Shown here: positions 5,052 through 34,747 of the stretch, piece after piece | Layout of the letters: every line of letters starts with the position of its first letter | Position numbering within the stretch: position 1 is the first letter of the stretch | Assembly (NCBI RefSeq): GCF_030254645.1 | Contig: NZ_CP116346.1 | Span: forward strand, 2,419,973-2,483,972 | DNA from: Paucibacter sediminis | GTDB lineage: Bacteria; Pseudomonadota; Gammaproteobacteria; Burkholderiales; Burkholderiaceae_C | Reading direction: 5' to 3' | Length of the DNA stretch: 64,000 nt | Notes under the pieces: generated by a model | Seen by the model: only the letters and a program-made list of their open reading frames with translations | Told to the model about the DNA's origin: nothing | The model's database searches: none | Translations under genes and position numbers: made by a program

Positions 5052-5082
5052 GTCGCAGCGTTTCGCTCCCAAGGAGAATCCA

Positions 5083-6471: not shown

Positions 6472-6506
6472 GCACACTGCAACCATACTGAGAAAGAACG
6501 AGACAA

Positions 6507-19243: not shown

Positions 19244-20238
19244 AAAACGTCGCCCTCTTCGGCGCAGGCCGCATCGGCCGCATCCATGCCGCCAATCTCG
19301 CGGCCCTGCCGGGCATACGGCTGAAGACCGTCAGTGACCCGATGGCAGATTCGGCCCGTGAGGTTGCCGCCCTGCACGGTGCCGACGTGGCCCCCGATAT
19401 CGACGCGGTGTTTGCCGATGCAGCCATAGACGCGGTGGTGATCGCTTCGCCGACGACCACGCACAGCGACCTCATACTGCGCGCCGCCGCCGCGCGCAAG
19501 CACGTGTTCTGCGAGAAACCGGTGGACCTGTCGGTGGCGCGCGCCCAGGCCTGCGCGGATGCGATCGCCACCGCCAATGTCGCCTGCATGATTGGTTTCC
19601 AGCGCCGCTTCGACCCCACCTTCAATGAAGCCAAGGCGCGGGCGCAGCGGGGCGAGATCGGCACGCCGGAGATGCTGGTCATCACCAGCCGCGACCCCGG
19701 CGCGCCGCCGGTGGACTACATCAAGCAGTCGGGCGGCATCTTCCGCGACATGCTGATACATGACTTCGACGTGTTCCGCTGGATGCTGTGCGAGGAGGGC
19801 GATGAGGCGGTCTGGCTCAGCGCCACCGGCTCCTGCCTGACCGACCCGGCAATAGCCACCGCTGGCGACGTGGACAGCACCGCCGTTACCCTGCGCACGC
19901 GCAGCGGGCGCCTCTGCCAGATCAACACCAGCCGCCGCGCCGCCTACGGTTACGACCAGCGCTTCGAGCTACTCGGCTCCAAGGGCCTGCTCGCCTGCGG
20001 CAACCACCGGCCCACCGAGGTGCTGCAGATGGACGGCCAGGGCGTGCGCACCGATCTGCCGGAGAACTTCTTTCTGCAGCGCTACCGCGAGGCCTACCGG
20101 CTGGAGTTGGCGCATTTCTTCGGGCAACTGCAGGCGGGCAGGGCGGTTCGAACCACCATCGAGGATGGTGTCGCTGCGCAACGCTTGGCAGACGCCGCTG
20201 CCGAGTCCTTCGCGCAAGGGCAGCCCGTGTTGTTTTAG
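19240..20238 (+). CDS. iolG: Inositol 2-dehydrogenase (Gfo/Idh/MocA family)
   Basis: [17 protein letters not shown] Rossmann N-terminus, Gfo/Idh/MocA layout, ATG overlapping the MCP stop, AAGGAA RBS. Confidence 0.8.
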
Positions 20239-20466
20239 GTTATGGACAGTCGGCCTGCATCGGTAGCTGAGTCACAACCGTGACGCTCGGGCTAGCTTGA
20301 GCACGCGGAATGGCGCCCTGCAAGCTCCTAGCTGGCCCGTTTCAACTTCTCCGTCCGTTTCTGCGGCTTCAGTCTGGCGGGCTGAATTCTTGGTCGGCAA
20401 GAATGCCTGCAGGGATCGAGGCCCGACTACTGGCTGAACTGGGTCCAGTTGCTGAAAGGTGATCCC

Positions 20467-20521
20467 GTTGTTTACGACTTTGGGTTGGCGGGGTAACTGA
20501 TGCCTAACCCCTCCGTCAAAG
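20467..20521. repeat. Direct repeat copy 1 (25-bp perfect core GTTGTTTACGACTTTGGGTTGGCGG plus ~30 bp imperfect)
   Basis: Identical 25-mer recurs at 23517-23541 in the same orientation, with a similar 3' extension (CTGA.TGCCT.CCCC.GT). Confidence 0.8.
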
Positions 20522-20573
20522 AGACGTCTTGCGCCAGGGCGCAAGCCGCCCCTTGCGTCGAACGTTAGACCCC

Positions 20574-20834
20574 ATGAAATCCAACACGCGCAGGACGTTG
20601 CTTCATTGGCTGCTCGTCGCCGGGTTCGCAGGCAGCCTCTTTTGCGCCGCTCGTGGCGCGATGCTGGTGTACTCCCTGAATTCTGTTGGTGGCATTTCGA
20701 TCCTTCAATCGGCGAGCGCGGAGACAATCAGTGCACAAGCTGCCGGGTTTAGTCCAATACACCGGAAACAGATGGTCTGTTTCGCATTGTTCAGAGGCAG
20801 CACAGTGAGCTTGACCTCATGTATTCATCGCTAG
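20574..20834 (+). CDS. Hypothetical small membrane protein
   Basis: 86 aa (MKSNTRRTLLHWLLVAGFAGSLFCAA...). One or two TM segments. Inside the lower-GC islet. Weak support. Confidence 0.3.
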   Translation: MKSNTRRTLLHWLLVAGFAGSLFCAARGAMLVYSLNSVGGISILQSASAETISAQAAGFSPIHRKQMVCFALFRGSTVSLTSCIHR

Positions 20835-21071
20835 AAACAGCAAGCGAACTTAACTGGGAGCTAGCGATTTTTGGAACTGCCGGATTCACGTTGCTGTCGT
20901 GCCTGTTTTCCGTCTGCCTTGCCATTCAAGCGCGCGGAGTGGGGAGTCAGAACCATGTGGTCTAACCGGTCGGTCAAGGGGACACACAACGGCGGTCCTG
21001 GCCTGTCCGCCTATGCTAGCGCCGTGCCGCCGTCGCGTGCCACTTACCTCCAACGTTAAAGCGCCAGCCAC

Positions 21072-21614
21072 ATGCGGGAACTGCACCGGTCTTCACAAGT
21101 TGTCCTAGCCTTTGCGATCGGTGTCGGCCTGCTTTCTGCACTTCGCTATCTGGTTGGCGCGGGCGCGCTCTTAGTTGCTGCCTTGCTTGCGATCCTCGGT
21201 GTCCTTGCACTTACCTGGTCAGGTTGGCGCGCTGTGAGCTTTCGGACAGCCGAAACGACGAACTACTTCGTTGTCGCTGCAACTGTTTGGCTTGCTTGGG
21301 TCTTCGCACCGTTGGATACCGCTGGTGTCTATGTGAAGTTTTGGCTGGAGCGCCCGTCATACGACTCAGCGGCGCGGGAAGCTGCACGAGGCGTTCAGCC
21401 CCCCTGCGCAACCACAAAGGCCTGCATGTTCGAGGCTGGATCCGATGCGAACTTGGCTTTCCCTTGGGAGGGAATCATTGATAACTGGATTGGGGTTGTT
21501 CATGACCCCTCCGGTCGGATTGAAGATGTGGACTCGCACAAGGGAGCTTTTGGCGGAGATTTGGTAGGCTGCCAACACCTTAGCGGACCCTACTACCTGT
21601 GCAGCTTTACATGA
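21072..21614 (+). CDS. Hypothetical membrane protein (3 TM N-terminus + Cys-containing C-terminal domain)
   Basis: 180 aa. Codon usage is lower-GC than the flanks. No recognisable family. Confidence 0.45.
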   Translation: MRELHRSSQVVLAFAIGVGLLSALRYLVGAGALLVAALLAILGVLALTWSGWRAVSFRTAETTNYFVVAATVWLAWVFAPLDTAGVYVKFWLERPSYDSAAREAARGVQPPCATTKACMFEAGSDANLAFPWEGIIDNWIGVVHDPSGRIEDVDSHKGAFGGDLVGCQHLSGPYYLCSFT

Positions 21615-21694
21615 GCCGCTTTAACCATTTGCTCGATCCGACTCGCGTCGGCCAGCCGCCGCTCGCGGCTCAGCGTCACCGTTGAACAGCGGCA

Positions 21695-22048
21695 ATGCGG
21701 CCAGGCACAGCTTTCATTGCTGTAGGAATTCTGGGTGCACTCTACGGATGCGACGCGGGATGTGGGAACGATGTCACGTCAACCTTTGAATCGCCTGGAG
21801 GTGGTCACATCGCGGTGATTTTCAGTCGCAACTGCGGGGCAACTACTGGCTTCAATACGCAGCTATCTGTCTTGGCGCGAGCCGACGCGTCTTCCAGCGA
21901 AGCTGGAAACACTCTTATTGCCGATGGCAAGCTGCCGCTAAAGGTTCGCTGGGCTTCGGAGTCCGAGCTTGTGGTCACAGGCTATCAGGGCGCGCGGCAT
22001 TTTAAGCAGGAGAAGCTCGCCAACGGAGTGACGGTCACATATGAATGA
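21695..22048 (+). CDS. Hypothetical lipoprotein
   Basis: 117 aa with signal peptide and lipobox LYGC. Confidence 0.45.
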   Translation: MRPGTAFIAVGILGALYGCDAGCGNDVTSTFESPGGGHIAVIFSRNCGATTGFNTQLSVLARADASSSEAGNTLIADGKLPLKVRWASESELVVTGYQGARHFKQEKLANGVTVTYE

Positions 22049-22124
22049 AACGCTTCTGTTCAACCCTGCGCCCAAGCGGACCTGCGCCAGCTATGCTGGC
22101 TGGTCCGCTTAGCTAGATCGTTGA

Positions 22125-22536
22125 GTGTCCGCATTGGGGCTGCGAATTCGACAGTGTGACTGACTGCAATCGCTGCCAAGGCGCCCTTCAATTGGGGCTC
22201 AGATGTGTATTGCCAACGGGTTGAATCTGCCTTGATGCCGCTTGAATCTGGGAGAAGCCTGGCTCCGACTGATTTTATTTGGAGCGACTCGCTGAAGGTC
22301 GCAGATTTAAGGAGTTCCGACGGACTTTCCAGTTTCGCACCCGGTAGAAAAATCAATGACATACGCGCGTCAATCCCGACGGACCTTATTTGTTGGAGTC
22401 ACATTCTTTCTGTCTATTTAAAGCCGTAAATGGTCTGTCCACTAGTGGCGCTTAAGCAGCCTTCGCCATGGTGAGGTCAGCTTTGCAGCGATTGCAGTCA
22501 GTCACATTGTCGAATGCGCAGCCCCAATGCGGATAC
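22125..22536. repeat. 412-bp element bounded by 52-bp inverted repeats (MITE-like / long-stem RNA candidate)
   Basis: 22125-22176 (GTGTCCGCATTGGGGCTGCGAATTCGACAGTGTGACTGACTGCAATCGCTGC) is the reverse complement of 22485-22536 with 3 mismatches. The ~308-bp AT-richer core has no convincing ORF. Confidence 0.75.
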
Positions 22537-22545
22537 TCAACGTTC

Positions 22546-22565
22546 GAGCTGAGCTGAGCTGAGCT
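22546..22565. repeat. (GAGCT)x4 tandem microsatellite
   Basis: gagctgagctgagctgagct directly follows the right inverted repeat. Confidence 0.7.
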
Positions 22566-22607
22566 GCGCGCGGAGGATTGCCGACGCGATTCGGCTCGAG
22601 CGAGGGG

Positions 22608-23255
22608 TTAGGCAGCGTTCGGCGAGCTTGCAACATGACCAGGAGCGGTCTCCAAACCTTGTGTCATCCGACCTGCGTCTCGGATCAGGCGCTCCGCCGC
22701 AAGCTCCAGGAAGAAGAAGCCGAATCTAGGGTTCTGGTAGTACATCTGCCGGACCTCGTCGTAGGTGAGGAGCAGGAGCTGGCCGTCTTGGTCGCATACA
22801 ACGGTCTGCGTTCGCTTGTGCCCTTTCGTGATCAGCCCAAGCTCGCCGATAACTTCACCTTGCTTCAACACGATATCAGCCTCTACGGCGCGAAACCTTC
22901 CGCTGAGCACGAACATAAACTCCGCGGCCTCGTCGCCCTGCTTGAAGAGAGTCTCCCCGGCGTGAACGGCCTTGCGGCGCGAGAACGGTCTGAGCCAGTC
23001 CATGGACAGGTGCCCCGTGGAGGCCTCCTCAATCTGACGGGTCAGTTGCAGCAGCTGCCGCAGGCGCCAAAGGTTCAAGGGCAGCAGAGTCAAGTGCAGA
23101 AGCAGCACTGGGTAGACGCTGCCCATCGCACCATAGGTGACAAACGCTAGATTGGAGACAATTCCAGCCATGCGTAGGTGCAACATTGTCTTCATTGAGA
23201 AGGTCGTCAGCGTCAGCAGTGCGCCCAGATAGCCAAACATCTCCACCCATTGCAT
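22608..23255 (-). CDS. Membrane-anchored cyclic-nucleotide-binding (CAP_ED/cNMP) domain protein
   Basis: Start ATG 23255 with GGAGGGG RBS. Three N-terminal TM helices, then a cNMP-binding fold (FKQGDEAAEFMFVLSGRFRAV...GEVIGELGLITKGHKRTQTVVC). GC ~58% versus ~68% in the flanks. Confidence 0.7.
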   Translation of the reverse strand: MQWVEMFGYLGALLTLTTFSMKTMLHLRMAGIVSNLAFVTYGAMGSVYPVLLLHLTLLPLNLWRLRQLLQLTRQIEEASTGHLSMDWLRPFSRRKAVHAGETLFKQGDEAAEFMFVLSGRFRAVEADIVLKQGEVIGELGLITKGHKRTQTVVCDQDGQLLLLTYDEVRQMYYQNPRFGFFFLELAAERLIRDAGRMTQGLETAPGHVASSPNAA

Positions 23256-23516
23256 GTCCGCCCCTCCATGAGCACTGAAGGCCCTTGGGGGCCTGGAGGA
23301 ATACATTGTGCTCTGTGACAGACGGCCCCCAAGTTCTGTGAGAGCTAACGTTGACGCTGAGCAGCGCGCGGCGCCTGCCGGCGCTTCAACATTCGGGCGC
23401 CCATCCGAGCATGCAGCTTGCCACCCCAGCAAGGAAGGCCATGCAAATGCTGATAGCTTAAGCGGCGAGATGCGTCTATCCGTTGATCTGGAGTCGGCCG
23501 CAAAAGTGGCCGATTT

Positions 23517-23567
23517 GTTGTTTACGACTTTGGGTTGGCGGTGAGGCTGACTGCCTCCCCGTAAAGT
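23517..23567. repeat. Direct repeat copy 2
   Basis: Same 25-bp core as 20467-20491 plus a degenerate extension. Confidence 0.8.
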
Positions 23568-23759
23568 GCGTAAACACGGGCTGAGCATTTATGCAGGCTG
23601 GCGACCGAAATCCGATTTGCGGTGACGTCCAGGTCCCCGCCGTCGGCGTTCAACGCCTGAATTGGTGATTGCTCCAGTGGTTCCCGGTTGAATAGCTGTT
23701 CAGTTTGGTCAGCCGGTACCACCGAATGTGGGGCCACCGGTTGTCAACGTGACATCGTG

Positions 23760-26393
23760 TCAGGAGTCCGACGTACACGGCGCTTCTGCAGAGCCGAGAC
23801 AGAAGCGGTCCCGTCCTCCTGCCTTGGCGGCGTACAACAAGTCGTCCGCCCGTTTGCTGAGGTCGCGCGGCGTCAGCCCAGGCTCGCCGCGATAAAGCAC
23901 CACGCCGATGCTGGTGCTGACGTGGACGGACCGGTTCTCCAGCACAAACGGCGTGCGCATCGCCTCAACGATATTGCCTGCAATGGTGACGGCATCGGCC
24001 GGCGCGGACAGTTGCTCGACGATGACGGCGAACTCGTCGCCGCCGGGGCGGGCCACGATGTCGGCGCCGCGCAGGCTGCGCGACAGCCGGCCGGCGAAGC
24101 CGCGCAGCAGCAGGTCGCCGGCCAGGTGCCCCAGGCTGTCGTTCACCTGCTTGAAGCCGTCCAGGTCCAGCAGCAGCAGGGCCATCGTGCCGCCCACGCT
24201 TTGGCAGCGCTGCACGGCCTCATACGCGCGCTGCTCGAAGCCGGCACGGTTCAGGAGGCCGGTGAGGCTGTCGGACTGGCTCAGCTCGATCAGTCGGCGC
24301 TCCTCCTGCTTCTGCGCGGTGGTGTCCAGAATCATCGCCACAAAGCCCAGCACCTCGCGGCCGTCGTCGGCGAACTGGGGCAGGTAGCTGGCGCGGTAGC
24401 AGCGGTAGCCTTCGCGCGTGGTGATCTCGCTGTCGAAACTCACGGTCTCGCCGGCCAGCGCGCGTCGGATGTGCGGTGCGGCCTCGCCGTACGCGCCCGC
24501 GCCAATCACCTCGCGGACGGTGAGGCCCAGCAGCTCGTGGCGCGGCCGGCCAAAGGCGCGCTCGTAGGCCAGGTTGATGAAGCGATAGCGCTCGTCCGCG
24601 TCGACATAGGACACGCGCATGGGCAGTTGATCGGTGATGCTGCGCAGGCGCTGCTCGCTCTGACGCAACGCCTGTTCGGCACGGCGGCGCGGCGTGATAT
24701 CGCTGGCCAGGGCGTAGAAGCCGTCCACCGCACCGGCGGCGTCGCGCCTGGGTACCAAGGCGACGTGGATCCAGCGCTCCTCGGCCCGTCCCTGGATGTG
24801 GCGCTCGTAGCTCGCGGCTTCGCCGCGCAGTGCGGCTTCCATGGCCGGCCGCACCTCGGCCCAGGCCGCCTCGCCCAGCACCGAGGCCACGGTCTGCCCG
24901 AGCACGGCCTCCGGCGCGATGCCCAGCCAGTCCTGGTAGGTGCGGTTGGCAAAGCGGTAGCGGAATTCGCGGTCGTGATCGGCGATCAGCGCGGGCGCGC
25001 TGTCGGTGATGGCGCGCAGGCGCTCCTCGCTGGCCGCCAACCTGGCCTGGGCCTCGCGGCCCTCGGTCACGTCGCGCAGCAGCAGCTGCGACAACTGGCG
25101 GCCGCGCGCATCTCGGTAGCGTGCGGTCTGGACCTCCACCTCGAGGCGCCGGCCATCGCTGCGGCATAGCGTCAGCAGGCGCGGCTGGCCCGCCGGCTGT
25201 TGCAGGCATTCGGCAAGCGATGTGCCATTGCCATTGGGCAGTTGCGTGAGCGCCAAGCCAGGCGTGCCTGGCGGCTCTTTCGGCGCCAGCTCCAGCATCA
25301 GCCGCGCCATCGGGTTGAGCGCGGTCAGCCGGCCTTCCGGATCGACCACCACAATGCCTTCGCTGGCATGCTGGAACTGCGCCTGTTGCTGACGCTGGCT
25401 GGCCAGCAGCTCGGCCGCCAGGCCGCAGATCAGCACGCCGGTGCAGACCTGGGCGGTGACATAGCTCCACAGGGCCAGCAGCCCGGCGTGGGTGTCGTGT
25501 CCGGCAAACGGGCCGATGCCGCTGGCGGTGCCCCAGGCGGCCGTGCCCGACAGCAGCAACACCGCCAGCGAGGCCGCTAGCACGCCGGCACGCAGCGCCA
25601 GCACGGCCATCAGGAACAGCGGCAGGGCCAGCAAGGGAAAGGTCAAGGCCGTCGCGGGCGCCGTCCAGGGCGAGAAGGTCAGCAGCCCGCAGGCCAGCAC
25701 CAGGCCCAGCAAGGCCATGTTGAAGCGGCCGCGCCGGCCGGCAAAGCTGGTGCGCATGCTGGCGCGGGACATGGCGACCAGCGGAATACCGCCCAGCAGG
25801 GCCCCGACCGCATCGCCGGTCCACCAGGTGAGCCAGGCGGGCGCCCATTGGCCGGCCGACAGGAAGCCCGCCAAACGCAGCCAGACGCAGCCATTGCTGG
25901 CGGTGACCAGCATGCCCAGCGCCACGGCCAGCAGGTAATGTCCCAGGTCGGCGCGGCGCGTGAGTGCCGCGTCAAAGCCCAAGCGGCCGAGCAGTTTGGC
26001 GCTTAGCCAAGGGCCCAGCGCATTGCCCGCCGCGATACCGAGCGCCGCCCAGGCGGGCGTGCCGATCTGGTAATTGATCAGAAAGGCGGCCAGCAGCATG
26101 GTCGGCGCCATCGAGGTGCCCCAACGCAGATAAGCAGCCAGTGCGATACCGGTGGGCAGCCAGATCAGCGAGACATGCGATCCGATGTAGGGAATCAGCA
26201 GGCCCAAGCGCGCTGCCAGGTAGTAGGCGAGCGCGGCCGCGCCCATGCGCGCGAACTGGTGCGGGCCTGATGCCTGTGACGGCGCTTCGTATGGGGTGCT
26301 CGAGTACACGGCCAGCCCAGGCAATGGCACTGCGTTGGCACCAAACTGCTCCCATGACATCCTTGGCCTGATGGGTAACCGGCCGGACTCCAT
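23760..26393 (-). CDS. Sensor diguanylate cyclase: MASE1 - PAS - PAS - GGDEF
   Basis: Seven-TM MASE1-like N-terminus, two PAS/PAC regions, C-terminal GGDEF (GGDEFAVIV) and no EAL. The start is ambiguous: TTG 26726, ATG ~26393 (MESGRL) or ATG ~26360 (MSWEQF). Confidence 0.8.
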   Translation of the reverse strand: MESGRLPIRPRMSWEQFGANAVPLPGLAVYSSTPYEAPSQASGPHQFARMGAAALAYYLAARLGLLIPYIGSHVSLIWLPTGIALAAYLRWGTSMAPTMLLAAFLINYQIGTPAWAALGIAAGNALGPWLSAKLLGRLGFDAALTRRADLGHYLLAVALGMLVTASNGCVWLRLAGFLSAGQWAPAWLTWWTGDAVGALLGGIPLVAMSRASMRTSFAGRRGRFNMALLGLVLACGLLTFSPWTAPATALTFPLLALPLFLMAVLALRAGVLAASLAVLLLSGTAAWGTASGIGPFAGHDTHAGLLALWSYVTAQVCTGVLICGLAAELLASQRQQQAQFQHASEGIVVVDPEGRLTALNPMARLMLELAPKEPPGTPGLALTQLPNGNGTSLAECLQQPAGQPRLLTLCRSDGRRLEVEVQTARYRDARGRQLSQLLLRDVTEGREAQARLAASEERLRAITDSAPALIADHDREFRYRFANRTYQDWLGIAPEAVLGQTVASVLGEAAWAEVRPAMEAALRGEAASYERHIQGRAEERWIHVALVPRRDAAGAVDGFYALASDITPRRRAEQALRQSEQRLRSITDQLPMRVSYVDADERYRFINLAYERAFGRPRHELLGLTVREVIGAGAYGEAAPHIRRALAGETVSFDSEITTREGYRCYRASYLPQFADDGREVLGFVAMILDTTAQKQEERRLIELSQSDSLTGLLNRAGFEQRAYEAVQRCQSVGGTMALLLLDLDGFKQVNDSLGHLAGDLLLRGFAGRLSRSLRGADIVARPGGDEFAVIVEQLSAPADAVTIAGNIVEAMRTPFVLENRSVHVSTSIGVVLYRGEPGLTPRDLSKRADDLLYAAKAGGRDRFCLGSAEAPCTSDS

Positions 26394-26589
26394 CTTCGTC
26401 GTCCGTGCTGTCTGTTGCCTGACATTTGGGACGGACCGCGGGCTGAATATGTCGCTACGCTTGCGGATGCCGGACGCACCGGGCTGCGCGATGCTGTGAA
26501 GGCTGCCTGGGCGGTCAAGGGCATCGCTCCGGCCTGAGATGGCGAGGCCCTGTGGCGATTGGCGGTCTACCTTGATTGAGGAGTCGGCG

Positions 26590-27045
26590 ATGAAGTACAA
26601 ACTGCTCTCGTTTCTGTTTGCTGCCTTGCTGCTGTCCAACGCGAGCGCGCAGGTGCAAGGGGTGGTCGCCATGCCCAGCAAATTCTCGGTTGCTGAAACC
26701 ATCGACCGCGCCGAAGCCGCAGTCAAGGCAGCCAGCGGCTTTCAGATCTTTGCAAGAGTCGACTTTCAGGCCGTGGCGGCGACGCAGGGCGGCAAGGTGC
26801 GCCCCGCCCAGCTGTTGATCTTTGGCCGAGGCACGGTGCTCCCAGCCCTGCTGCCGCAGTACCCCGCCACTGCGATCGATCTTCCGCTCAAGATCGTTGC
26901 CTGGGAGGATGAAACGGGCAAGGTCATGCTGGCCTACAACACCGGCGAGTACCTGGCGCAACGGCATGGAGTCATGGGCAAGGACGACGTCCTCAAACGC
27001 ATCACCGACGCCACCGCCTCTTTTGCAAAGCTGGCGATTGAGTAG
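26590..27045 (+). CDS. DUF302-family periplasmic protein
   Basis: GAGGAG RBS, signal peptide MKYKLLSFLFAALLLSNASA, ~150 aa. Confidence 0.55.
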   Translation: MKYKLLSFLFAALLLSNASAQVQGVVAMPSKFSVAETIDRAEAAVKAASGFQIFARVDFQAVAATQGGKVRPAQLLIFGRGTVLPALLPQYPATAIDLPLKIVAWEDETGKVMLAYNTGEYLAQRHGVMGKDDVLKRITDATASFAKLAIE

Positions 27046-27235
27046 TGCCCGAGCCGGCTGCACACGCGCCCTAGCGAAAGCAGCGGACGCGCGCCGGTGA
27101 TCGCAGGATTGACGCTTTCCAACTCCGGTGCGCAGAATCAAAAAGAGAGCCCTCGGGTGAAGACTCTCGTCCGCATCGGTGGCGCGCCGATCCTGCGCTC
27201 TGTCCAACCATACGGCGCGAAGAGAGGTTTATCCT

Positions 27236-27880
27236 ATGTCTCCGACCAGGTTTCTTGGACTCAGGCCGCTCATCGTGGCCGCGATCACCGCGCTGGGTAC
27301 GACGAGTGCGCACGCGCTGATCTTGTGTGTGGATTCGGGCGGCAACCTGTCCGCCGGAACGACGTGCAAGAAGGGTTGGACGCCTCTGGATCCGGTTGCT
27401 ACGGGCCTTCAGGGGCCGATGGGTCCACAGGGTCCGCAAGGTCCGCAGGGGCCACAAGGGTTGACAGGGCCTCAAGGCAACGTCGGGCCCATGGGGCCGC
27501 AAGGTAGTCGGGGCCCCAGTGATGTCTACGCCGTCGACGGGGTATTCGCGCCGGATCTGCTGAACGACGTCATCACCAATGTCGTTTCCATCAACCTTCC
27601 CCCTGGAAGTTACCTCGTTGTCGGGCGCGTGATGGTGGAGAACGACGATGTTCAAAGCAGGGCGACATGGTGCCGCCTCAGCGAGCCAAGCTTCACCCTG
27701 GACAACGCCGGACCGGAATACCAGCGAACGCTGCCGGCGGGGACGATGGACAACATCAGCCTTCAGCACACGCTGGTTTTCTCGTCGGCAAGCACAGTGA
27801 CGATGCAATGCAAGTCCTATAACGCGAGAGTGTTCTTTCCCCGTCTCGCGGCCATTCAGGTGGGGGCCGTTCACAAGTAG
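27236..27880 (+). CDS. Collagen-like triple-helix repeat protein with C-terminal globular domain
   Basis: AGAGG RBS and a signal peptide. 13 consecutive G-X-Y triplets (GLQGPMGPQGPQGPQGPQGLTGPQGNVGPMGPQGSRGPS), then a ~120-aa beta-rich domain (BclA / phage-fibre-like architecture). Confidence 0.6.
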   Translation: MSPTRFLGLRPLIVAAITALGTTSAHALILCVDSGGNLSAGTTCKKGWTPLDPVATGLQGPMGPQGPQGPQGPQGLTGPQGNVGPMGPQGSRGPSDVYAVDGVFAPDLLNDVITNVVSINLPPGSYLVVGRVMVENDDVQSRATWCRLSEPSFTLDNAGPEYQRTLPAGTMDNISLQHTLVFSSASTVTMQCKSYNARVFFPRLAAIQVGAVHK

Positions 27881-28107
27881 GAAACGGCGTGGCGCAGCGG
27901 GAGCGCCTGAGCTCTTCCGCTGACCTGGCCGACCAGGGGCGCACGTTGAAGGACCGATAGCCTCTGGAGGGCAATCAATGCAGTCAGGCTGACGCTGGCG
28001 TCGCGGCAGCGAACGGCAGTTGTGCAGCGATGGCAGCCTGAGCCCGACTAACTCTATGGGCTGCTCTCGGCCAGGCGCGGCCGTTCAACAACGACAGTGC
28101 GCATGCT

Positions 28108-28509
28108 TCAAGCATCGCTCACGGTCTCGTGCTCGGCAGGAATGAAGATCTCGAGCAGTTCGCAATCCTCGGACCATCCGACCACGGTGTGGCGGATGTT
28201 GGGTGGCTGCACCCAGCTCGAGCCCGCATGCAGCCGGCGCCGGCCGACACCCTCAAACTCGGTCTCGAACCACCCTCTCAGGCAGTAGACCATCTGGAAC
28301 TGCACGTCATGGCGATGACGGACGCTCAACTCGGGCCGGTAGGGCTCGATCATGCGGATCACATGCGCTCGCGCGAGGCCGTTCGTCGCCTCAGCGACAC
28401 CCAGATCACGATAGGACGAGTAGCTGCGTAGCCCCCCGGTCTTGAAGGCAGCCTCGTCATGGTGGCTGAGGACGAAGTGGTGCTGCTCGTTGGATGACGG
28501 CGTGTTCAT
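28108..28509 (-). CDS. Cupin-domain protein
   Basis: GGAG RBS. 133 aa with a two-motif cupin pattern (HRHDVQFQMVYCLRGWFETEFEG...HAGSSWVQPPNIRHTV). Confidence 0.55.
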   Translation of the reverse strand: MNTPSSNEQHHFVLSHHDEAAFKTGGLRSYSSYRDLGVAEATNGLARAHVIRMIEPYRPELSVRHRHDVQFQMVYCLRGWFETEFEGVGRRRLHAGSSWVQPPNIRHTVVGWSEDCELLEIFIPAEHETVSDA

Positions 28510-28988
28510 GTGAGCTCCAGTGACTGCCCGAATTCCGATCAGACCTCGCGACAGCGAGCTTGGCAATCCTAAGACCACGCTTGCAGCGCTCATCGGGGCT
28601 GTCTGCAGGCGTGCGCTGGGCCAGCGTTCAAGGGTTGCGGATTTGATCGGGCGCGCGGCGTACATGACGAGCGACGGTATTTGGACTTCCATGTCCACGC
28701 AGCCCAGGCGCTCACAGACCTGGACCAGGCCGAGCTGTCTGTCACTGATGCCAGCGCCAAACTGTTCGGCACGATCCGCCTCGCTGCGCCGATCGTGCTT
28801 AGTCCATAGGCAGATCTAGCGCGGGCCGCCTAATGCTCCCGTTCTTTACGAAGTTACCGTAGGAGAGCGGCGGAGTGCTCCTGGGCTTCAGCGATCTCAA
28901 CCCGGGCGAGGCCGTCATCGTCGATTTCCTGCCACTGCCGCCGGACGCTCGCCACAGCACAGGGCACTTCGAGCGAGGCGTCGAAGGG

Positions 28989-29354
28989 TTACTGGTGGAA
29001 CGTCTTCAGCAATTGCTTCAAGCGTTTTCGTCCGTCGCTATTCGTCTCGCGAAACGTCTTCAGCGCCAGTGCCAGGAACTGCTGTTCTCCTGGTGACAGA
29101 CCCGTTGGCTCGCGCTCTTCGTCCAGCCACCCGGGCTCCTTGCTGCAATGCTGCTCGATCTGTCGAGCCAGCTTGTCGCCGATCGGCCGAGCGCCGCTCT
29201 TGGCCATGGACCAGGTGGCGCTACTCACCTCGATCTTGCTTGCCCAGGCCGACTCAAGTCCCTTGGGTGGGTCGCCGGCGGCGATGCGTTCTTCCGCAAA
29301 AGTCTGGAAGAGCGCAATGGCGTTGAGTCGGCGAAATGTAGAGATGCTGGACAC
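28989..29354 (-). CDS. Hypothetical protein, possible HTH regulator
   Basis: 121 aa. Helix-turn-helix-like segment KIEVSSATWSMAKSGARPIGDKLARQIE. Lower GC. No family assigned. Confidence 0.35.
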   Translation of the reverse strand: MSSISTFRRLNAIALFQTFAEERIAAGDPPKGLESAWASKIEVSSATWSMAKSGARPIGDKLARQIEQHCSKEPGWLDEEREPTGLSPGEQQFLALALKTFRETNSDGRKRLKQLLKTFHQ

Positions 29355-29876
29355 GGCGTGTGTTGTTAAAACACTTCACATGCATTCTAGGGGATCGAAG
29401 GAGTTGACGGGGCCGTGAACACTCTTCACAATTCATCCATTCGTTAATTCACCCCAACCCGCCAGGTCTCATCATGCTTCGCACAGCCTACGTCACCAAC
29501 GCCAAGCGCCCCCTTTCGGGTGAGATGGCTGTGTGCTTCGCTGCGGCTCGCCATGAGATTGCGCTGGCACTGAGCCAGCCGCGCCAAGACCGATACGAAG
29601 GTGAATCAATGCTACCGGGGAAGGCTCCAGCCCGCTGAAGCTTTCGTACTCCAGGGATCCGTCGATCCCATGAAGCCCGGTCTCCTGCAGGAACCGGGCT
29701 TTTTGTTTGGCTCCTGCGAATCGGATTGATGCCATCTCGGGTGTGCCCGTGCACAAGCACCGGCCGGCCCGGTGCGCATGTGTGCCCAAGCACGTTCTGC
29801 AGACGGAGCCGGCATGCAGCGGTCAAGACAAGCCTTGCTTGCCTGGGTCGCGTGCGGACACAGCCGAGATGCCATC

Positions 29877-29953
29877 GCCTCGTTAGCTCAGTGGATCAGA
29901 GCGTCGGCCTACGAAGCCGGAGGCCGGAGGTTCGACTCCTTCACGAGGCACCA
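29877..29953 (+). tRNA. tRNA-Arg (anticodon ACG)
   Basis: Clean cloverleaf: acceptor GCCTCGT/ACGAGGC, D-arm GCTC..GAGC, anticodon loop CTACGAA, T-arm GGAGG-TTCGACT-CCTTC, CCA encoded. Confidence 0.85.
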
Positions 29954-29965
29954 GTTTTCATTTCT

Positions 29966-30040
29966 GTCCCGTTGGACTTCCGGTGAGGTCCTCGGCCCTT
30001 CAAGCCGAAGAGGCGGGTTCGACTCCCGCACGGGATACCA
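29966..30040 (+). tRNA. Aberrant tRNA-like gene (anticodon position reads TTC, C33 instead of U33, selC-like D-loop TCCGGTGAGG)
   Basis: Folds with a 7-bp acceptor (one G.U pair), T-arm GCGGG-TTCGACT-CCCGC and CCA, but the anticodon loop CCTTCAA is non-canonical. Possible pseudo-tRNA. Confidence 0.4.
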
Positions 30041-30142
30041 GATCAAAAGCCTGTCGTCGAGCTCGCGCTTCGACAGGCGCAAACCGGCCGCAACGATTGG
30101 GCGGCGTCGGAACCCGTCACCGACAGCTATAGCGAGCAAGAC

Positions 30143-30218
30143 CCGTGTGTAGCGCAACTGGTAGCGCATCTGCTTTGGGAGCAGGCGGTTGCAGGTTCAA
30201 GTCCTGCCGCACGGACCA
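30143..30218 (+). tRNA. tRNA-Pro (anticodon TGG)
   Basis: Acceptor CCGTGTG/CGCACGG (one G.U), D-arm GCGC-AACTGGTA-GCGC, anticodon loop TTTGGGA, T-arm GCAGG-TTCAAGT-CCTGC, CCA. Confidence 0.85.
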
Positions 30219-30228
30219 GGAGAAACAT

Positions 30229-30304
30229 GTCGCCATAGCTCAGTTGGAAGAGCAGCGGGTTTTGATCCCGCAGGTCGCAGGTTCGAACCCTGCCGCCCCT
30301 GCCA
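30229..30304 (+). pseudogene. Chimeric tRNA-Gln(TTG)-like sequence with non-pairing 5' acceptor strand
   Basis: Anticodon arm GCGGG-TTTTGAT-CCCGC, T-arm and 3' CGCCCCT-G-CCA match betaproteobacterial tRNA-Gln. The 5' strand GTCGCCA cannot pair with CGCCCCT, and the D-arm is of the Thr/Ala type. Confidence 0.45.
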
Positions 30305-30344
30305 GAACACATGAATCGTGCCCAGTCACAGAAAGGAGGACGCC

Positions 30345-30905
30345 ATGCACGACGTATTGCAGCTGGACATCATCGGCCAGCCTCAGGCCTGGATCTCGAT
30401 CAAGCAGGCGGCCGTCCATGTGGCTACGCGCTCGGTCGCCTGGTCGATCGGAGAACTGCCACTGGCTGTGCTGCGTGGTGGAACGAACGTTCGCAGCGGC
30501 CAGCAGTCGATCCTCGAGGTACCGGCCATCCTGGCTCTCAGCGGCAACTCGCGTCTGAATCTGTTCGACATGACGCCAAGCTTCAACAAGGCCAAGGTGA
30601 TCCGGCGCGACCGCCAGACCTGCGCCTACTGCGGCGATGCGCATGATGTGCGCTGCCTCACGGTCGACCACATCCTGCCGGCATCGCGTGGCGGGCCGCT
30701 CAGCTGGATGAACACGGTCGCTGCCTGCCGCGCCTGCAATGCGCGCAAGGCCGACCGCACGCCCGAGGAAGCCGGGATGCCGCTGCTGTTCACGCCCTAC
30801 GTGCCCAGCCGTTTCGAGGACTTCCTGCTCAAGGGCAGGCGGATCCGCGCGGACGTGCACGAGTGGCTGGCCGCGCGGCTACCGAAAGAATCGCGTCTGA
30901 GCTGA
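30345..30905 (+). CDS. HNH endonuclease
   Basis: AAGGAGGA RBS. Motif CAYCG...LTVDHILPASRGG...ACRACNARK (C-x2-C ... H ... H ... N ... C-x2-C). 186 aa. Embedded in the tRNA array. Confidence 0.8.
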   Translation: MHDVLQLDIIGQPQAWISIKQAAVHVATRSVAWSIGELPLAVLRGGTNVRSGQQSILEVPAILALSGNSRLNLFDMTPSFNKAKVIRRDRQTCAYCGDAHDVRCLTVDHILPASRGGPLSWMNTVAACRACNARKADRTPEEAGMPLLFTPYVPSRFEDFLLKGRRIRADVHEWLAARLPKESRLS

Positions 30906-31037
30906 CCCACCCGGTCGGCCCAGACGCCCACAGATCTGCCTTGGAAGGTAGGGCTCACAGCTTGGGGGTTCCACCCCACCGGTGCGTTGTGGCCGGGCTC
31001 GTCCCGTCGCTATGACGCATGCCGCCCTGCTGAAAGG

Positions 31038-31101
31038 GGCCGATACGGTGAAACACGGTTGTCCTGCAAGGGTTCGGGTTCGACTCCCGGGTTCGCCACC
31101 A
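31038..31101 (+). other. tRNA-like 3' fragment (acceptor-like stem GGCCGAT/GTTCGCC + T-arm TCGGG-TTCGACT-CCCGG + ACCA), no D/anticodon arms
   Basis: Ends ...GGGTTCGCCACCA. Only ~27 nt lie between the 5' acceptor-like strand and the T-arm. Its CCA abuts or overlaps the start of the downstream tRNA-Thr-like gene. Confidence 0.4.
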
Positions 31102-31173
31102 CTGGATAGCTCAGTCGGGTAGAGCAACGGATTCGTAATCCGTGTGTCGTGGGTTCGACGCCCACTCCACCAA
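31100..31173 (+). tRNA. tRNA-Thr (anticodon CGT)-like, first three acceptor pairs disrupted, no encoded CCA
   Basis: D-arm GCTC-AGTCGGGTA-GAGC, anticodon loop TTCGTAA, T-arm GTGGG-TTCGACG-CCCAC. The 3' acceptor TCCACCA needs a 5' TGGTGGA, but CACTGGA is found (positions 1-3 mismatched). Likely truncated or pseudo. Confidence 0.45.
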
Positions 31174-31432
31174 TGGCCTGTCACGCCAGTGAAAGAAGCG
31201 GTCGCAAGACCAACCCGCCGAACGTGCCGGCCTGCCCTCGGGTAAACCGGCATCAGCGCGGCCACCCGTGCTTCGGGCACGCGGGGCCTGCGTCCACGGC
31301 CAGTTCGAAGTGTGTCCAGGGAGGGCATGCCGACGACGCGCCGCGGCACCCAGTCCCAGGCATCCGGGGTCCGTGGCCGTGCTGTAACGGCACCCCTATT
31401 CAAACAACACGCTGCAAAACAAGGAGAACCTC

Positions 31433-32569
31433 ATGATGATCAAGCGTGTCACTGTGAAGAAGAACGAGCGCGGCCTGCTGCTGCGCAATGGTGATTTCGA
31501 GCGCGTGCTGCAACCCGGCACGCACTGGCTGTTCGCCGGCCTGGACCAGCTTCAGGTCGAGCTGTTTGCCATTGGAGCGCCGGCCTTCGTGCACCCTCTG
31601 ACCGATTACCTGCTGGCCAAGGAGCCGGCGGTGGTCGAGGCCGAGTTCGTGCGCGTCGAGTTGAACGCCAACCAGGTTGGCCTGCGTAGCGAGAACGGCG
31701 TGCTGGTTGAGCTGCTGCCGCCCGACACGCGGCGCCTGTACTGGAAGGGTCTGGTGGATGTGCGGGTCGAGGTGATCGACCTAGCGAGCTCCATCGAGCT
31801 GTCCCCGGCGCTCACCGCTCGGCTGCTGCAGACCCAGTTACGCCCACGGAGCATCACCGGCCTGGCCGGCGCGCTGCAAGTGGTCGTGCCGGAGCACGGC
31901 GCCGGCCTGCTGTGGGTCGACGGCAAGGTCGAGCGGCTGCTTGGCGCTGGCTCGTTCGCGTTCTGGAAGTTCAACCGCAACGTGAGCGTGGATCTGGTGG
32001 ACCTGCGGCTGCAGGCTGTCGAGGTGACGGGGCAGGAAATCCTGACCCGCGACAAGGTGGCTCTGCGGCTCAACCTCTCGGCCACCTGGCGCTACTCGGA
32101 CGTGCTGAGCGCCTACAAGGCCTTGGCCAAGCCGGCCGAGCATCTGTACCGTGAGCTGCAGTTCGGTCTGCGCGCGGCGGTGGGCACGCGCTCGCTCGAT
32201 GAGCTGCTCGAAAACAAGGGCGTCATTGACGAGGTGGTGACCGCCCAGGTCAAGGCCAAGCTCGCGGCGCTCGGGCTCGAGCTGACCAGCGTCGGCGTGA
32301 AGGACATCGTGCTGCCGGGCGAGATGAAGACCATCCTTGCCCAGGTGGTGGAGGCCGGGAAGTCGGCCGAAGCCAACGTGATCCGCCGCCGCGAGGAAAC
32401 CGCCGCGACCCGTTCGCTGCTGAACACCGCCAAGGTGATGGAGGACAACCCCGTCGCCCTGCGCCTCAAGGAGCTGGAAACCCTGGAGCGCGTGGCGGAG
32501 CGCATCGACAAGATCTCCGTCTTCGGAGGTCTGGACCAGGTGCTCAATGGGCTGGTGAAGCTGCGTTGA
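31433..32569 (+). CDS. SPFH/band-7 (slipin/HflC-like) domain protein
   Basis: AAGGAGA RBS. 378 aa with a recognisable SPFH domain (...ILTRDKVALRLNLSATWRY...LQFGLRAAVGTRSLDELLENK...) and a C-terminal coiled-coil. Confidence 0.75.
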   Translation: MMIKRVTVKKNERGLLLRNGDFERVLQPGTHWLFAGLDQLQVELFAIGAPAFVHPLTDYLLAKEPAVVEAEFVRVELNANQVGLRSENGVLVELLPPDTRRLYWKGLVDVRVEVIDLASSIELSPALTARLLQTQLRPRSITGLAGALQVVVPEHGAGLLWVDGKVERLLGAGSFAFWKFNRNVSVDLVDLRLQAVEVTGQEILTRDKVALRLNLSATWRYSDVLSAYKALAKPAEHLYRELQFGLRAAVGTRSLDELLENKGVIDEVVTAQVKAKLAALGLELTSVGVKDIVLPGEMKTILAQVVEAGKSAEANVIRRREETAATRSLLNTAKVMEDNPVALRLKELETLERVAERIDKISVFGGLDQVLNGLVKLR

Positions 32570-32633: not shown

Positions 32634-33851
32634 ATGGAAGCTCAACACATTCACGAAGACGTCCCAGGCGGTGTGCCGCTGAAGATGTGGACGCGTGGCG
32701 TGCCCGTCGAGTCCGAGGCCAAGCGCCAGCTCACCAACGCGGCGCGCCTGCCCATCGTCTTCAAGCACATCGCCGCGATGCCTGACGTGCACTTCGGCAT
32801 CGGTGCCACGGTGGGCTCGGTCATCCCGACCATCAAGGCCATCATTCCGGCGGCCGTGGGCGTGGACATCGGCTGCGGCATGATCGCCTGCAAGACCACG
32901 CTGCGCGCCGAAGACCTGCCCGACAACCTCGCCCCGCTGCGCGCAGCCATTGAGCGCGCAGTGCCGCATGGCCGCGTGCCCGGCAACCGTGACCCGGGCG
33001 CCTGGCAAAAGCCGCCGGGCTCGGTGGATACGGCCTGGGCGCAGCTCGAGCCCGAGTTCGCTGAGCTTTGCCGCAACTACCCCAAGCTGGAAAAGACCAA
33101 CCATCACAAGCACCTGGGAACGCTCGGTGGCGGCAACCACTTCATCGAGGTCTGCCTGGACGAAGCTGGCGCGGTCTGGTTCATGCTGCATTCGGGCTCG
33201 CGCGGCGTGGGCAATGCCATCGGCACGATGTTCATCGAACTGGCCAAGCAGGACGCGATGCGCCATCAGGCCAACCTGCCTGACCGCGACCTGGCCTACT
33301 TCGAGGAAGGCAGCCGCTACTTTGGCGACTATGTCCGTGCCGTGAGCTGGGCTCAGAAGTACGCCGCTATGAACCGTGAGGTCATGATGCGCCGCGTCAT
33401 CGAGGCTGCAAAGACGGTCCTGCACAAGAACTTCCAGAGCCACATCGAGGCGGTGAACTGCCACCACAACTATGTGCAGCGCGAGCAGCACTTCGGCGAG
33501 GACGTGTTCGTGACCCGCAAGGGTGCGGTGAGCGCCAAGGCAGGCCAGCTGGGCATCATCCCGGGCAGCATGGGCGCGCGCAGCTACATCGTGCGCGGCA
33601 AGGGCAACCCGGAGTCCTTCGAGTCCTGCTCACATGGCGCGGGCCGCGTCATGAGCCGTGGCGATGCCAAGCGCAGCTTCACGCTAGCCGACCACCGCGC
33701 GGCCACGGAAGGCGTCGAGTGCCGCAAGGACAAGGACGTGCTGGATGAAACGCCCGCGGCTTACAAGGACATCGATGCCGTCATGGCCGCGCAGGCGAAC
33801 CTGGTCGACGTGGTGCATACGTTGAAGCAGGTGGTTTGTGTGAAGGGTTGA
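32634..33851 (+). CDS. rtcB: RNA-splicing ligase RtcB (3'-phosphate/5'-OH RNA ligase)
   Basis: 405 aa with hallmark motifs GGGNHFIEV, HSGSRGVGN, and C-terminal SHGAGRVMSR containing the guanylylated His. Confidence 0.9.
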   Translation: MEAQHIHEDVPGGVPLKMWTRGVPVESEAKRQLTNAARLPIVFKHIAAMPDVHFGIGATVGSVIPTIKAIIPAAVGVDIGCGMIACKTTLRAEDLPDNLAPLRAAIERAVPHGRVPGNRDPGAWQKPPGSVDTAWAQLEPEFAELCRNYPKLEKTNHHKHLGTLGGGNHFIEVCLDEAGAVWFMLHSGSRGVGNAIGTMFIELAKQDAMRHQANLPDRDLAYFEEGSRYFGDYVRAVSWAQKYAAMNREVMMRRVIEAAKTVLHKNFQSHIEAVNCHHNYVQREQHFGEDVFVTRKGAVSAKAGQLGIIPGSMGARSYIVRGKGNPESFESCSHGAGRVMSRGDAKRSFTLADHRAATEGVECRKDKDVLDETPAAYKDIDAVMAAQANLVDVVHTLKQVVCVKG

Positions 33852-33982
33852 GCCGCAGGGCTGCTCGGATGTTGTCTCCCGGCTTGACCATGGCGCCGCG
33901 CGAGGTCTCGAACACTTTCGGGAACGCAACCCCCGGATTCCGCATCCAATGGGCAACACTCGCAAACTCCGGTGAACGCACC

Positions 33983-34747
33983 ATGCCAGCCAAGCTCGCC
34001 ATACCCGCCATTAGCCACGCCCAAGCGCATCCCGCCAGTCAGGCGGATGGCGAACTCGCGCGCCTTGCCGCGGGCGGGGACGAGGCCGCCTTCGAGGCCT
34101 TGATGCGGCGCCACAACCGGCGCCTGTTCCGCACCGCGCGCAGCATCGTGAAGTGCGACGAGGAAGCCGAGGACGCGTTGCAGGAGGCCTATCTGCGGGC
34201 CTGGTCCGCCTTGCCCGGCTTCCGTGCCGAGGCGCAGTTGTCCACCTGGCTGGTGCGCATCGTGGCCAACGAAGCCCTGGGGCGGCTGCGCAAGCGTGCC
34301 CGCGGCGCACAGGTGATTGCCTTGGAGGGTCTGGCCATGCCGTCCGACGATGAGTCCGCTGCGTCGACGACGCTCGAAGCGCTGATGAGCGATCCTGCCG
34401 CGCAGGAGCAGCCCGAGCGGCTGGCGATGCGCGGGCAGATGCGCCAGCTCATCGAGGCGCGCATCGATCAGCTGCCCGCCCTGTTCCGCACGGTGTTCGT
34501 GCTTCGCGCCGTCGAGGAGATGAGCGTGGAGGAGGTGGCCCTGGCGCTGCAGTTGCCGGCCGCCACGGTGCGCACCCGCTTCTTCCGCGCCCGCGCCCTG
34601 CTGCGCGAAGCGCTCTCGCAGGACATGGACGTCGCAACCGGCGACGCCTTCTCCTTCGACGGCGCGCGCTGCGACCGCATCGTCGCCGCGGTGCTGTCAC
34701 GCCTGGCCGCGCAAGCCAGCGCCAGCCCCGCGGCCTCGGACCCCTAG
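33983..34747 (+). CDS. RNA polymerase ECF sigma factor (sigma-70 family, group 4) with ~60-aa C-terminal extension
   Basis: Region 2 (EEAEDALQEAYLRAW...TWLVRIVANEA) and region 4 (LPALFRTVFVLRAVEEMSVEEVALALQLPAATVRTRFFRAR). Confidence 0.75.
   Translation: MPAKLAIPAISHAQAHPASQADGELARLAAGGDEAAFEALMRRHNRRLFRTARSIVKCDEEAEDALQEAYLRAWSALPGFRAEAQLSTWLVRIVANEALGRLRKRARGAQVIALEGLAMPSDDESAASTTLEALMSDPAAQEQPERLAMRGQMRQLIEARIDQLPALFRTVFVLRAVEEMSVEEVALALQLPAATVRTRFFRARALLREALSQDMDVATGDAFSFDGARCDRIVAAVLSRLAAQASASPAASDP

Follow-up and report, generated by a model that had tools for sequence, protein, structure and literature searches.

A conserved bipartite tRNA-like RNA upstream of the Band-7 and RtcB genes of Paucibacter sediminis and other Burkholderiales

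The 64,000-nucleotide (nt) stretch of Paucibacter sediminis DNA analysed here, referred to below as the window, carries on one strand and in this order a tRNA array, an HNH endonuclease gene, a tRNA-like RNA, a Band-7/SPFH (slipin) gene and a gene for the RNA ligase RtcB. The subject of this report is the tRNA-like RNA, which occupies positions 31041-31174 of the + strand, as located with a covariance model built here, and consists of two fused units, module 1 (31047-31101, +) and module 2 (31102-31173, +). Its 3' end lies 260 nt before the start of the Band-7 gene (31433-32569, +; Pfam Band_7, 2.4e-29), and RtcB (32634-33851, +; Pfam RtcB, 3.9e-128) follows about 1.5 kb downstream of the RNA. 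On the other side stands the HNH gene (30345-30905, +; Pfam HNH_5, 1.9e-13, and HNH, 6.2e-12). The Band-7 protein of the window is 100% identical to the Paucibacter sediminis slipin, has close homologs by the thousand, and appeared stomatin-like in a search of PDB sequences. An earlier reading made from the letters of the window (the sequence-only reading) had described this place as a tRNA 3' half fused to a 5'-damaged tRNA-Thr, and had explained it as an att-type junction, a recombination scar or a free-standing tRNA mimic. The comparative evidence presented here points instead to a single bipartite RNA, whose conservation in position and structure goes far beyond chance.

Anatomy of the two modules

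Module 1, which corresponds to the mini-element of the sequence-only reading, was delimited by covariation, by an alignment-free test of its acceptor helix (P1), and by cloverleaf homologs in distant lineages. P1 pairs 31047-31052 with 31092-31097. In the segment that joins P1 to the next helix, a GG at 31057-31058 is kept in 69 of 71 sequences, and may be the remnant of the G18-G19 of a D-loop. A second hairpin, P2 (31062-31065 with 31070-31073, with a GCAA loop), occupies the place of the anticodon arm, and is followed by the T-arm at 31074-31090 (TCGGG-TTCGACT-CCCGG; stem 31074-31078 with 31086-31090), by GTTCGCC at 31091-31097, by a discriminator A at 31098 and by CCA at 31099-31101. The module is thus an acceptor/T-arm minihelix of 12 base pairs (bp) with a 3' NCCA, and module 2 begins directly after it, with no spacer at the junction. 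The NCCA end is found in about 60 of 71 relatives; the distance from the first T-loop to the discriminator was also considered as a measure, but its count is confounded by internal CCA triplets (CACCACCA) and it was not used. The sequence-only reading had the order of T-arm, GTTCGCC, A and CCA right, as well as the ARAGORN tRNA-Thr(cgt) that overlaps the CCA. It had proposed GGCCGAT (31038-31044) as the 5' strand of the acceptor, which covariation and the alignment-free test assign to GGTGAA (31047-31052), and it had described an element with neither D-arm nor anticodon arm: the D-arm is indeed missing, but the GCAA-capped hairpin at 31062-31073 stands where the anticodon arm would be. The Rfam tRNA model gives no separate match on 31038-31101, even at E<=10; the model built here scores 31041-31174 as a whole with 135 bits.

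Module 2 was delimited by ARAGORN, by a local match of Rfam, and by covariation. ARAGORN reports a tRNA-Thr(cgt) at 31100-31173, which overlaps the CCA of module 1, and the Rfam tRNA model matches 31103-31169 with 48.6 bits. This match is limited to model positions 4-67 because only TGGA and TCCA (31103-31106 with 31166-31169) pair in the acceptor, where CAC stands unpaired opposite CCA. The remainder is a canonical tRNA body, with a D-arm at 31109-31125 (stem 31109-31112 with 31122-31125), an anticodon arm at 31127-31143 (stem 31127-31131 with 31139-31143; loop TTCGTAA), and a T-arm at 31149-31165 (stem 31149-31153 with 31161-31165). Across relatives the D-arm is invariant, and the anticodon, T and acceptor stems covary. 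The acceptor has 3-5 bp, mostly 4 bp, in these relatives, and 4-5 bp in distant lineages too, in forms as different as TGGA/TCCA, GAGA/TCTC, TGGC/GCCA, TCCC/GGGA, CGAC/GTCG and CAGG/CCTG. Among the matches listed, all four pairs are formed in 52 of 70 loci, and the mean is 3.73 paired positions out of 4, compared with 2.74 when strands are permuted. Because the short helix recurs and covaries across lineages, the short acceptor of module 2 is a selected state and not damage. The mismatched tRNA-Thr acceptor of the sequence-only reading therefore survives as to the unpaired CAC and CCA, but not as to the 5' damage, since relatives keep a short covarying helix, with the same limited pairing as in the window.

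The loop of module 2 behaves in quite another way from its body. ARAGORN assigns at least 18 different anticodons at this position across relatives, and assigns none in the Acidovorax clade, where a tetraloop takes the place of the anticodon loop; some other relatives have loops of 6 or 8 nt. More than 40 different loop sequences occur among 71 loci, GAAA and GCAA tetraloops included, and close relatives with a nearly identical module 2 body differ at 3-4 of 7 loop positions. Judging from this variation, module 2 probably does not decode. ARAGORN nevertheless calls it an ordinary tRNA (Thr in the window; Ile, Phe, Val and others elsewhere), and accepting these calls would inflate tRNA gene counts.

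Conservation, covariation and operon context

The conservation of the RNA was examined in 80 loci from different species that carry a Band-7 homolog with 74-94% identity. BLAST and motif scans showed that the region corresponding to 31000-31200 is kept upstream of Band-7 in nearly all of them, with two T-arm motifs 62-82 nt apart. A covariance model made from 41 sequences and the structure proposed here matches the expected position in 78 of the 80 loci, the contigs of the other two ending less than 350 nt upstream of Band-7, so that 78 of the 80 Burkholderiales species have the bipartite RNA, some 300-400 nt upstream of their Band-7/SPFH gene. The scores reach at least 76 bits in 70 loci and the window, and are lower or partial in eight. 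Where the contig of a relative is long enough, RtcB mostly follows Band-7. The same model also scores tandem tRNAs inside arrays, with up to 76 bits (L004, L010, L015, L038, L044 and others). These are false positives of the dimeric-tRNA type, and matches were counted only at the expected position; a genome-wide search for the family needs a positional or acceptor-length filter.

The proposed pairs were examined in two alignments and without any alignment. In a MAFFT alignment of 74 sequences that was not fitted to the model, 87.6% of cells pair, compared with 73.4% after shuffling and with 31-50% when the 3' partner is slid by 1-3 columns. In the model-fitted alignment (71 sequences) 97.4% of cells pair, compared with 40-47% after the same slide, and compensatory changes are present in 25 of the 33 pairs; for P1 alone, 96.8% are paired and six of six pairs show compensatory changes. 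Although fitting biases an alignment toward the structure of its model, both the unfitted alignment and the alignment-free test give the same picture. This last test was made for P1, which is misaligned for one clade in the MAFFT alignment. A perfect 6-mer complement was found at a constant upstream distance in 59 of 74 sequences, and the 44 distinct strands gave a paired fraction of 0.966, where a swap null gave 0.84 (maximum 0.87). The identification of GGTGAA as the 5' strand of P1 follows from this test together with the covariation in 71 relatives.

Metagenome contigs were scanned for the RNA alone, using the DNA pattern GGTTCGANTCC-N9-12-CCA-N3-5-TAGCTCAG, whose spacing leaves no room for two ordinary tRNAs side by side. 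At least 120 loci were obtained. Among the matches listed, 81 loci continue for more than 900 nt downstream, and 65 of these have a Band-7 homolog (27-93% identity) that starts 370-580 nt after the first T-arm, often with RtcB next after it and sometimes with HNH upstream; those of the 81 that have no Band-7 are mostly lone tRNAs with a chance TAGCTCAG. In 51 of 68 metagenomic loci, again among the matches listed, module 1 is a complete cloverleaf, made of an acceptor of 6-7 bp, a D-arm, an anticodon stem with a short loop, a T-arm and NCCA, and the lineages that show it are those whose Band-7 stands at or below about 60% identity. In such distant loci ARAGORN frequently reports a tRNA for each module, with overlapping coordinates and odd loops. 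Given this complete form of module 1 in distant lineages, the mini-element of the window is module 1 without its D-arm, which was lost in the Burkholderiales lineage. The junction pattern gave five matches in IMG/VR, all of them ordinary tRNA arrays with no Band-7, and a phage collection searched with the locus showed generic tRNA and HNH similarity only.

Within the Burkholderiales, the RNA/Band-7/RtcB module is placed under two different upstream contexts. Type B, which includes the window and 43 of the 80 loci (for example L002-L052), has the order tRNA array, HNH, RNA, Band-7, in some loci a ClpP-like protease, and RtcB; the HNH homolog (64-89% identity) occupies the equivalent position in these 43 loci, and the HNH protein appears to be part of the system. 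Type A (25 loci, from Acidovorax, Delftia, Hydrogenophaga, Simplicispira, Rhizobacter and Albitalea) has a divergent rtcR gene followed by the same RNA, Band-7 and RtcB. The RtcR of these loci carries the Pfam domains RtcR and Sigma54_activat (in L053 at 913-2553, - strand), and a sigma-54 promoter, TGGCAC-N5-nTGCA/nGGCA (for example TGGCACGCATCTGGCA), is located about 151 nt before the RNA (L038, L050-L080), the strict pattern being matched in 18 of the 25 loci. Since this promoter directly precedes the RNA, the RNA is predicted to be the first transcribed element of the RtcR/sigma-54 operon in type A. No RtcR homolog was found in the window, no sigma-54 pattern near its RNA, and no sigma-70 promoter in a scan of 29600-31500; the RNA of the window is possibly transcribed from upstream of the tRNA array.

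The conserved region extends beyond the two modules, since the spacer of about 540 nt from HNH to Band-7 is conserved throughout within the Burkholderiales. Just 5' of the modules, a long and bulged hairpin, here called hairpin B (30980-31024, +), was predicted with RNAalifold from 28 relatives, with 18 pairs of which 10 show compensatory changes; it is visible in the intergenic alignment, and its 3' strand carries a conserved CATGCCG motif. Downstream of the modules, Burkholderiales alignments show a nearly invariant block at 31200-31226 (+), in which a GGTCGCAAGACC hairpin (31200-31211) is followed by CCCGCCGAACGTG (31214-31226). Further invariant blocks of the spacer are CATCAGC and CTGTAACGGCACCC. 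A long-range helix that would enclose both modules (31005-31009 with 31219-31224), also suggested by RNAalifold, was discarded, as it shows no compensatory change and clashes with the covarying hairpin B. An inverted repeat, GCGTCTG...CAGACGC (30893-30927), spans the HNH stop codon; relatives keep the hairpin with a variable centre, and it is not an intrinsic terminator because it has no T-run.

Known relatives and possible roles

A non-coding RNA (ncRNA) beside Band-7 and RtcB, strongly similar to tRNA, was predicted by Burroughs and Aravind in 2016 (Nucleic Acids Res) under the name b7a-tRNA, and was without experimental validation as of 2018, according to the summary of that work in bioRxiv 10.1101/312249. 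Our literature search found no experimental test of b7a-tRNA and no other paper that mentions it, and Rfam 15 has no family for it. The bipartite RNA is best read as this b7a-tRNA of the RtcB repair operon. As in the summary, it lies beside a Band-7/SPFH gene, is linked to RtcB, is tRNA-like in its module 2, and stands where Rsr and the Y RNAs stand in other Rtc operons. The summary speaks of a single tRNA-like RNA, whereas two fused modules are present here, of which module 1 ends in NCCA and is D-armless in the Burkholderiales, and module 2 has an acceptor of 4-5 bp. The two-module fusion, the D-armless module 1, the acceptor of 4-5 bp and the alternative RtcR/sigma-54 and array/HNH contexts may be new anatomy.

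A second comparison is YrlA (Rfam RF02553), which is also a tRNA-mimicking ncRNA inside an RtcB operon, with the mimicry of T-arm and D-arm kept, and the operon of the Acidovorax-type relatives resembles that of YrlA in standing under RtcR and sigma-54. The YrlA of M. smegmatis is cut by RNase P and receives a CCA (PMC4201824), and the NCCA junction of the bipartite RNA can be compared with this. In the operon rsr-yrlBA-rtcBA, yrlA and yrlB encode processed RNAs that act in trans (PMC4201824, PMC7790460), and the type A RNA holds the position that rsr-yrlBA has in Salmonella (PMC7790460). YrlA has also been proposed to be a competitive inhibitor of an anticodon nuclease. The two RNAs differ in that YrlA is circularly permuted (T-arm, acceptor hairpin, D-arm) and closed by a Ro60-binding stem, whereas the bipartite RNA consists of two tandem units in normal tRNA order and has Band-7 rather than Ro60 as its partner. 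Module 1 recalls moreover the tRNA-like domain of tmRNA, or a minihelix, in its acceptor stacked on the T-arm, its D-loop remnant without a D-stem, and its 3' NCCA, but the bipartite RNA lacks a tag reading frame, pseudoknots and a G3:U70, and its inserted helix is a tetraloop hairpin of 4-5 bp; tmRNA was rejected as an identity, with no ARAGORN call and no Rfam tmRNA match even at E<=10. The surroundings of the RNA in the window have a counterpart in the long tRNA arrays (L-arrays) described in 2021, which accompany an HNH gene, share their regulation with rtcB, are induced by translational stress in cyanobacteria, and were read as a response to such stress and to tRNA cleavage (PMC8421152). 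The window likewise clusters a tRNA array, an HNH endonuclease gene and RtcB; those arrays hold up to 43 genes and are mainly cyanobacterial, and the main text of that paper contains neither 'band 7' nor 'tRNA-like'.

With a probability of about 0.72, we propose that 31041-31174 is one conserved bipartite tRNA-like ncRNA that works as a trans-acting partner of the Band-7/RtcB repair machinery. It always shares the strand of Band-7, whose gene starts a few hundred nt further on and is followed by RtcB, and it would be transcribed as the 5' part of the Band-7/RtcB transcript and excised from it by RNase P and 3' trimming. Since no spacer separates the NCCA of module 1 from module 2, RNase P would need to cut only once, where module 2 begins, to free the CCA end of module 1. 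The RNA would fold into two tRNA-shaped elbows and would serve in trans as a cofactor, scaffold or decoy when Band-7 and RtcB reseal nuclease-cut tRNAs, in line with earlier proposals for Y RNAs and for b7a-tRNA, a role that may parallel that of the YrlA Y RNA with Ro60 in the rsr-yrlBA-rtcBA operon of Salmonella. Several observations weigh against this proposal. Processing and action in trans are steps that we infer, and the correspondence with b7a-tRNA was drawn from a one-paragraph summary. The NCCA is absent from about 10 of 71 relatives, and single-sequence folding, with energies that do not improve on those of shuffled sequences, is uninformative, with a z-score of 0.03 for 31041-31174 and of -0.55 for the whole spacer of 536 nt. 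The clade of the window has neither RtcR nor the sigma-54 promoter, no intrinsic terminator was found on the + strand in 29600-31500, and the roughly 260 nt that lead from the RNA to the start of Band-7 show conservation within the Burkholderiales as well.

Some of these observations would be expected if the tRNA-like pair and its flanking hairpins formed a cis-acting structured leader, that is, a regulatory 5' untranslated region of the Band-7/RtcB mRNA in which, for example, RNase P processing or tRNA-binding factors adjust the stability or translation of the mRNA to the condition of the tRNA pool. We consider this unlikely as the main role, and yet several points favour it: the strand, which is always that of Band-7, and the position of the first T-arm 370-580 nt ahead of this gene, both of which also speak against a trans-acting RNA; the conservation of the whole spacer of about 540 nt, with covarying structure beyond the modules; the lack of a + strand intrinsic terminator between the RNA and Band-7; and, in the RtcR clade, the sigma-54 promoter that would make the RNA the first element transcribed. 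What evolution has preserved, however, is a folded tRNA body, with an invariant D-arm, T-loops and a 12 bp NCCA minihelix, in loci whose Band-7 falls to 27-40% identity, and the preserved features include neither pairing to the ribosome-binding site nor a terminator/antiterminator switch; in addition, the precedent from the same type of operon, yrlA/yrlB, consists of processed trans-acting RNAs (PMC4201824, PMC7790460). Leader and trans-acting RNA are not mutually exclusive and may coexist, and the computed data separate neither from the other. It is distinctly improbable that the pair as a whole acts as a 'sentinel tRNA'. Module 1, released by RNase P and bearing a genuine CCA, would then be a reporter or entry point for tRNA-handling enzymes, and module 2 would be a bait or competitive inhibitor for anticodon nucleases, held by a Band-7 assembly and resealed by RtcB; the loop would vary by species because it tracks the toxins that each lineage meets.

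The remaining explanations treat the locus as a known object or as an accident. A YrlA-type Y RNA that binds Ro60/Rsr is suggested by the neighbouring rtcB, by the Rfam YrlA model, which aligns to 31052-31149 with 29 bits (E=0.001 in a 1.8 kb search), and by GCCGAACG (31217-31224), contained in CCCGCCGAACGTG, which fits the Y-RNA motif GNCGAAN0-1G (PMC4201824). Such membership is nonetheless very improbable. The score falls well short of the 69 bits required by the gathering threshold, and the match joins T-arm 1 to the D-arm of module 2, although the segment between these two arms (31091-31106) forms no hairpin, as its halves pair outward, to 31047-31052 and to 31166-31169, in two helices that both covary; dimeric tRNAs yield exactly such false positives, as Chen et al. 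warned. YrlA genes stand within about 4 kb of a Ro60/Rsr (TROVE) gene, but no TROVE/Ro60 domain was found with Pfam in the 12 open reading frames (ORFs) tested at 19.2-37.2 kb. The motif itself, which Y RNAs carry close to the 5' end, lies 3' of the modules here; GCCGAACG is conserved in the Burkholderiales and absent from most distant lineages. GNCGAAN0-1G does occur downstream of the RNA in 34 of 70 loci, against about 15 expected, most of these being GAAA-tetraloop hairpins, and it was rejected as a general feature of this RNA since GCCGAACG is confined to the Burkholderiales. The suggestion of a Y-RNA-like tRNA mimic beside rtcB thus holds for the tRNA-like character of the RNA and for RtcB downstream, but neither for YrlA membership nor for a standalone mini-element, as both modules form one conserved RNA associated with Band-7 rather than Ro60. 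A functional tRNA-Thr(CGU) in module 2, closing the array, with a decaying pseudo-tRNA before it in module 1, would agree with the ARAGORN call, with canonical D, anticodon and T arms, and with the U33 and A37 of the loop TTCGTAA. We regard this as scarcely probable in view of the 4 bp acceptor (rather than 7 bp) with CAC opposite CCA, and of orthologs that change the anticodon and even the size of the loop while the rest of the molecule is almost invariant; nor is module 1 decaying, because it is under purifying selection with covariation. Conservation together with covariation refutes, finally, an att-type junction or recombination scar, formed by a tRNA 3' half written over the beginning of a tRNA-Thr gene during integration or rearrangement of the array. 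The locus does lie at the edge of a stretch of lower guanine plus cytosine (GC) content (58-63% at 20-30 kb, and 65-73% elsewhere), a tRNA array and a homing-type HNH gene adjoin it, and one array member (30236-30293) is truly degenerate. A scar, however, would not stay in register across genera, and the identical fused geometry recurs in 78 of 80 species, behind HNH as well as behind rtcR, and also in distant metagenomic lineages, with compensatory evolution in the stems, the short acceptor helix included. A second copy of the 3' segments, which could mark the other end of an island, was not found in the 64 kb window, where their longest repeat is the 15 nt of T-arm shared with tRNA-Glu; no integrase is encoded by any of the 12 ORFs tested at 19.2-37.2 kb.

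Among the ncRNAs encoded in bacterial RtcB operons, the Y RNAs with Ro60 are the only case studied so far, and that in part. This locus offers a candidate second RNA partner, sharply delimited and backed by covariation, with boundaries, helices and invariant nucleotides mapped, and with a fixed protein partner, Band-7. The RNA lies under an RtcR/sigma-54 damage-sensing switch in one clade and is tied to a tRNA array and HNH in another, so that the cofactor, decoy and leader hypotheses become directly testable in culturable Acidovorax, Delftia or Roseateles. An untested prediction of 2016 is hereby turned into a precisely defined RNA, which would not surprise a specialist who knows that prediction. 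Independently of the sentinel idea, the two-module architecture and a structured leader of about 500 nt possibly represent an uncatalogued RNA family with at least 140 members.

Neighbouring features

The tRNA array of the window contains genes for tRNA-Arg (ACG), tRNA-Glu (TTC) and tRNA-Pro (TGG) at 29877-30218 (+), called by ARAGORN and matched by the Rfam tRNA model with 48-67 bits. Its final unit, at 30236-30293 (+), is a degenerate tRNA-Gln(TTG)-like element with 46.9 bits, for which the Rfam match covers model positions 8-63 only; its acceptor strands are unpaired, and ARAGORN makes no call on it. Relatives have an intact tRNA-Gln(ttg) at the same spot, directly before the HNH gene, and the copy of the window looks like a decaying array member. 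The arrays at the same place in relatives comprise 1-12 tRNA genes.

Upstream of the array, the GC content is 58-63% at 20001-30000 (71% at 24-26 kb), compared with 65-73% in the rest of the window. This stretch, which ends near the tRNA array, may be acquired DNA, and its genes include those for a cNMP-binding protein, a PAS/GGDEF protein and a cupin, as well as ORFs with no Pfam family. At the other end of the locus, a gene for a sigma-70 family sigma factor, similar to the extracytoplasmic function type (33836-34747), overlaps the end of rtcB by 16 nt; its homolog was found in none of the 80 related loci.

A slipin gene also exists in E. coli. In CP061233.1 (L206), a region at 4475-6928 between a DUF3811 gene and lysC holds a slipin (55% identity) and a nucleotidyltransferase gene, and a query running from the upstream spacer across the slipin gene into the nucleotidyltransferase gene is covered to at least 80% in 1629 of 5426 complete genomes. 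No RtcB, ARAGORN call or Rfam match was found at this locus; upstream of the slipin, a sigma-54-like promoter (CTGGCACGCTTCTCGCAA) is accompanied by a single T-arm-like motif (TGGGTTCGATTCCCA), and the locus may hold a diverged RNA partner.

In some relatives an extra gene is inserted between Band-7 and RtcB. In the Acidovorax locus L053 (4426-5169) it encodes a protein of 247 amino acids with no Pfam or NCBIfam family, and in L009 (6157-7242) a ClpP-like serine protease of the SDH type, with which prokaryotic stomatins are classically partnered.

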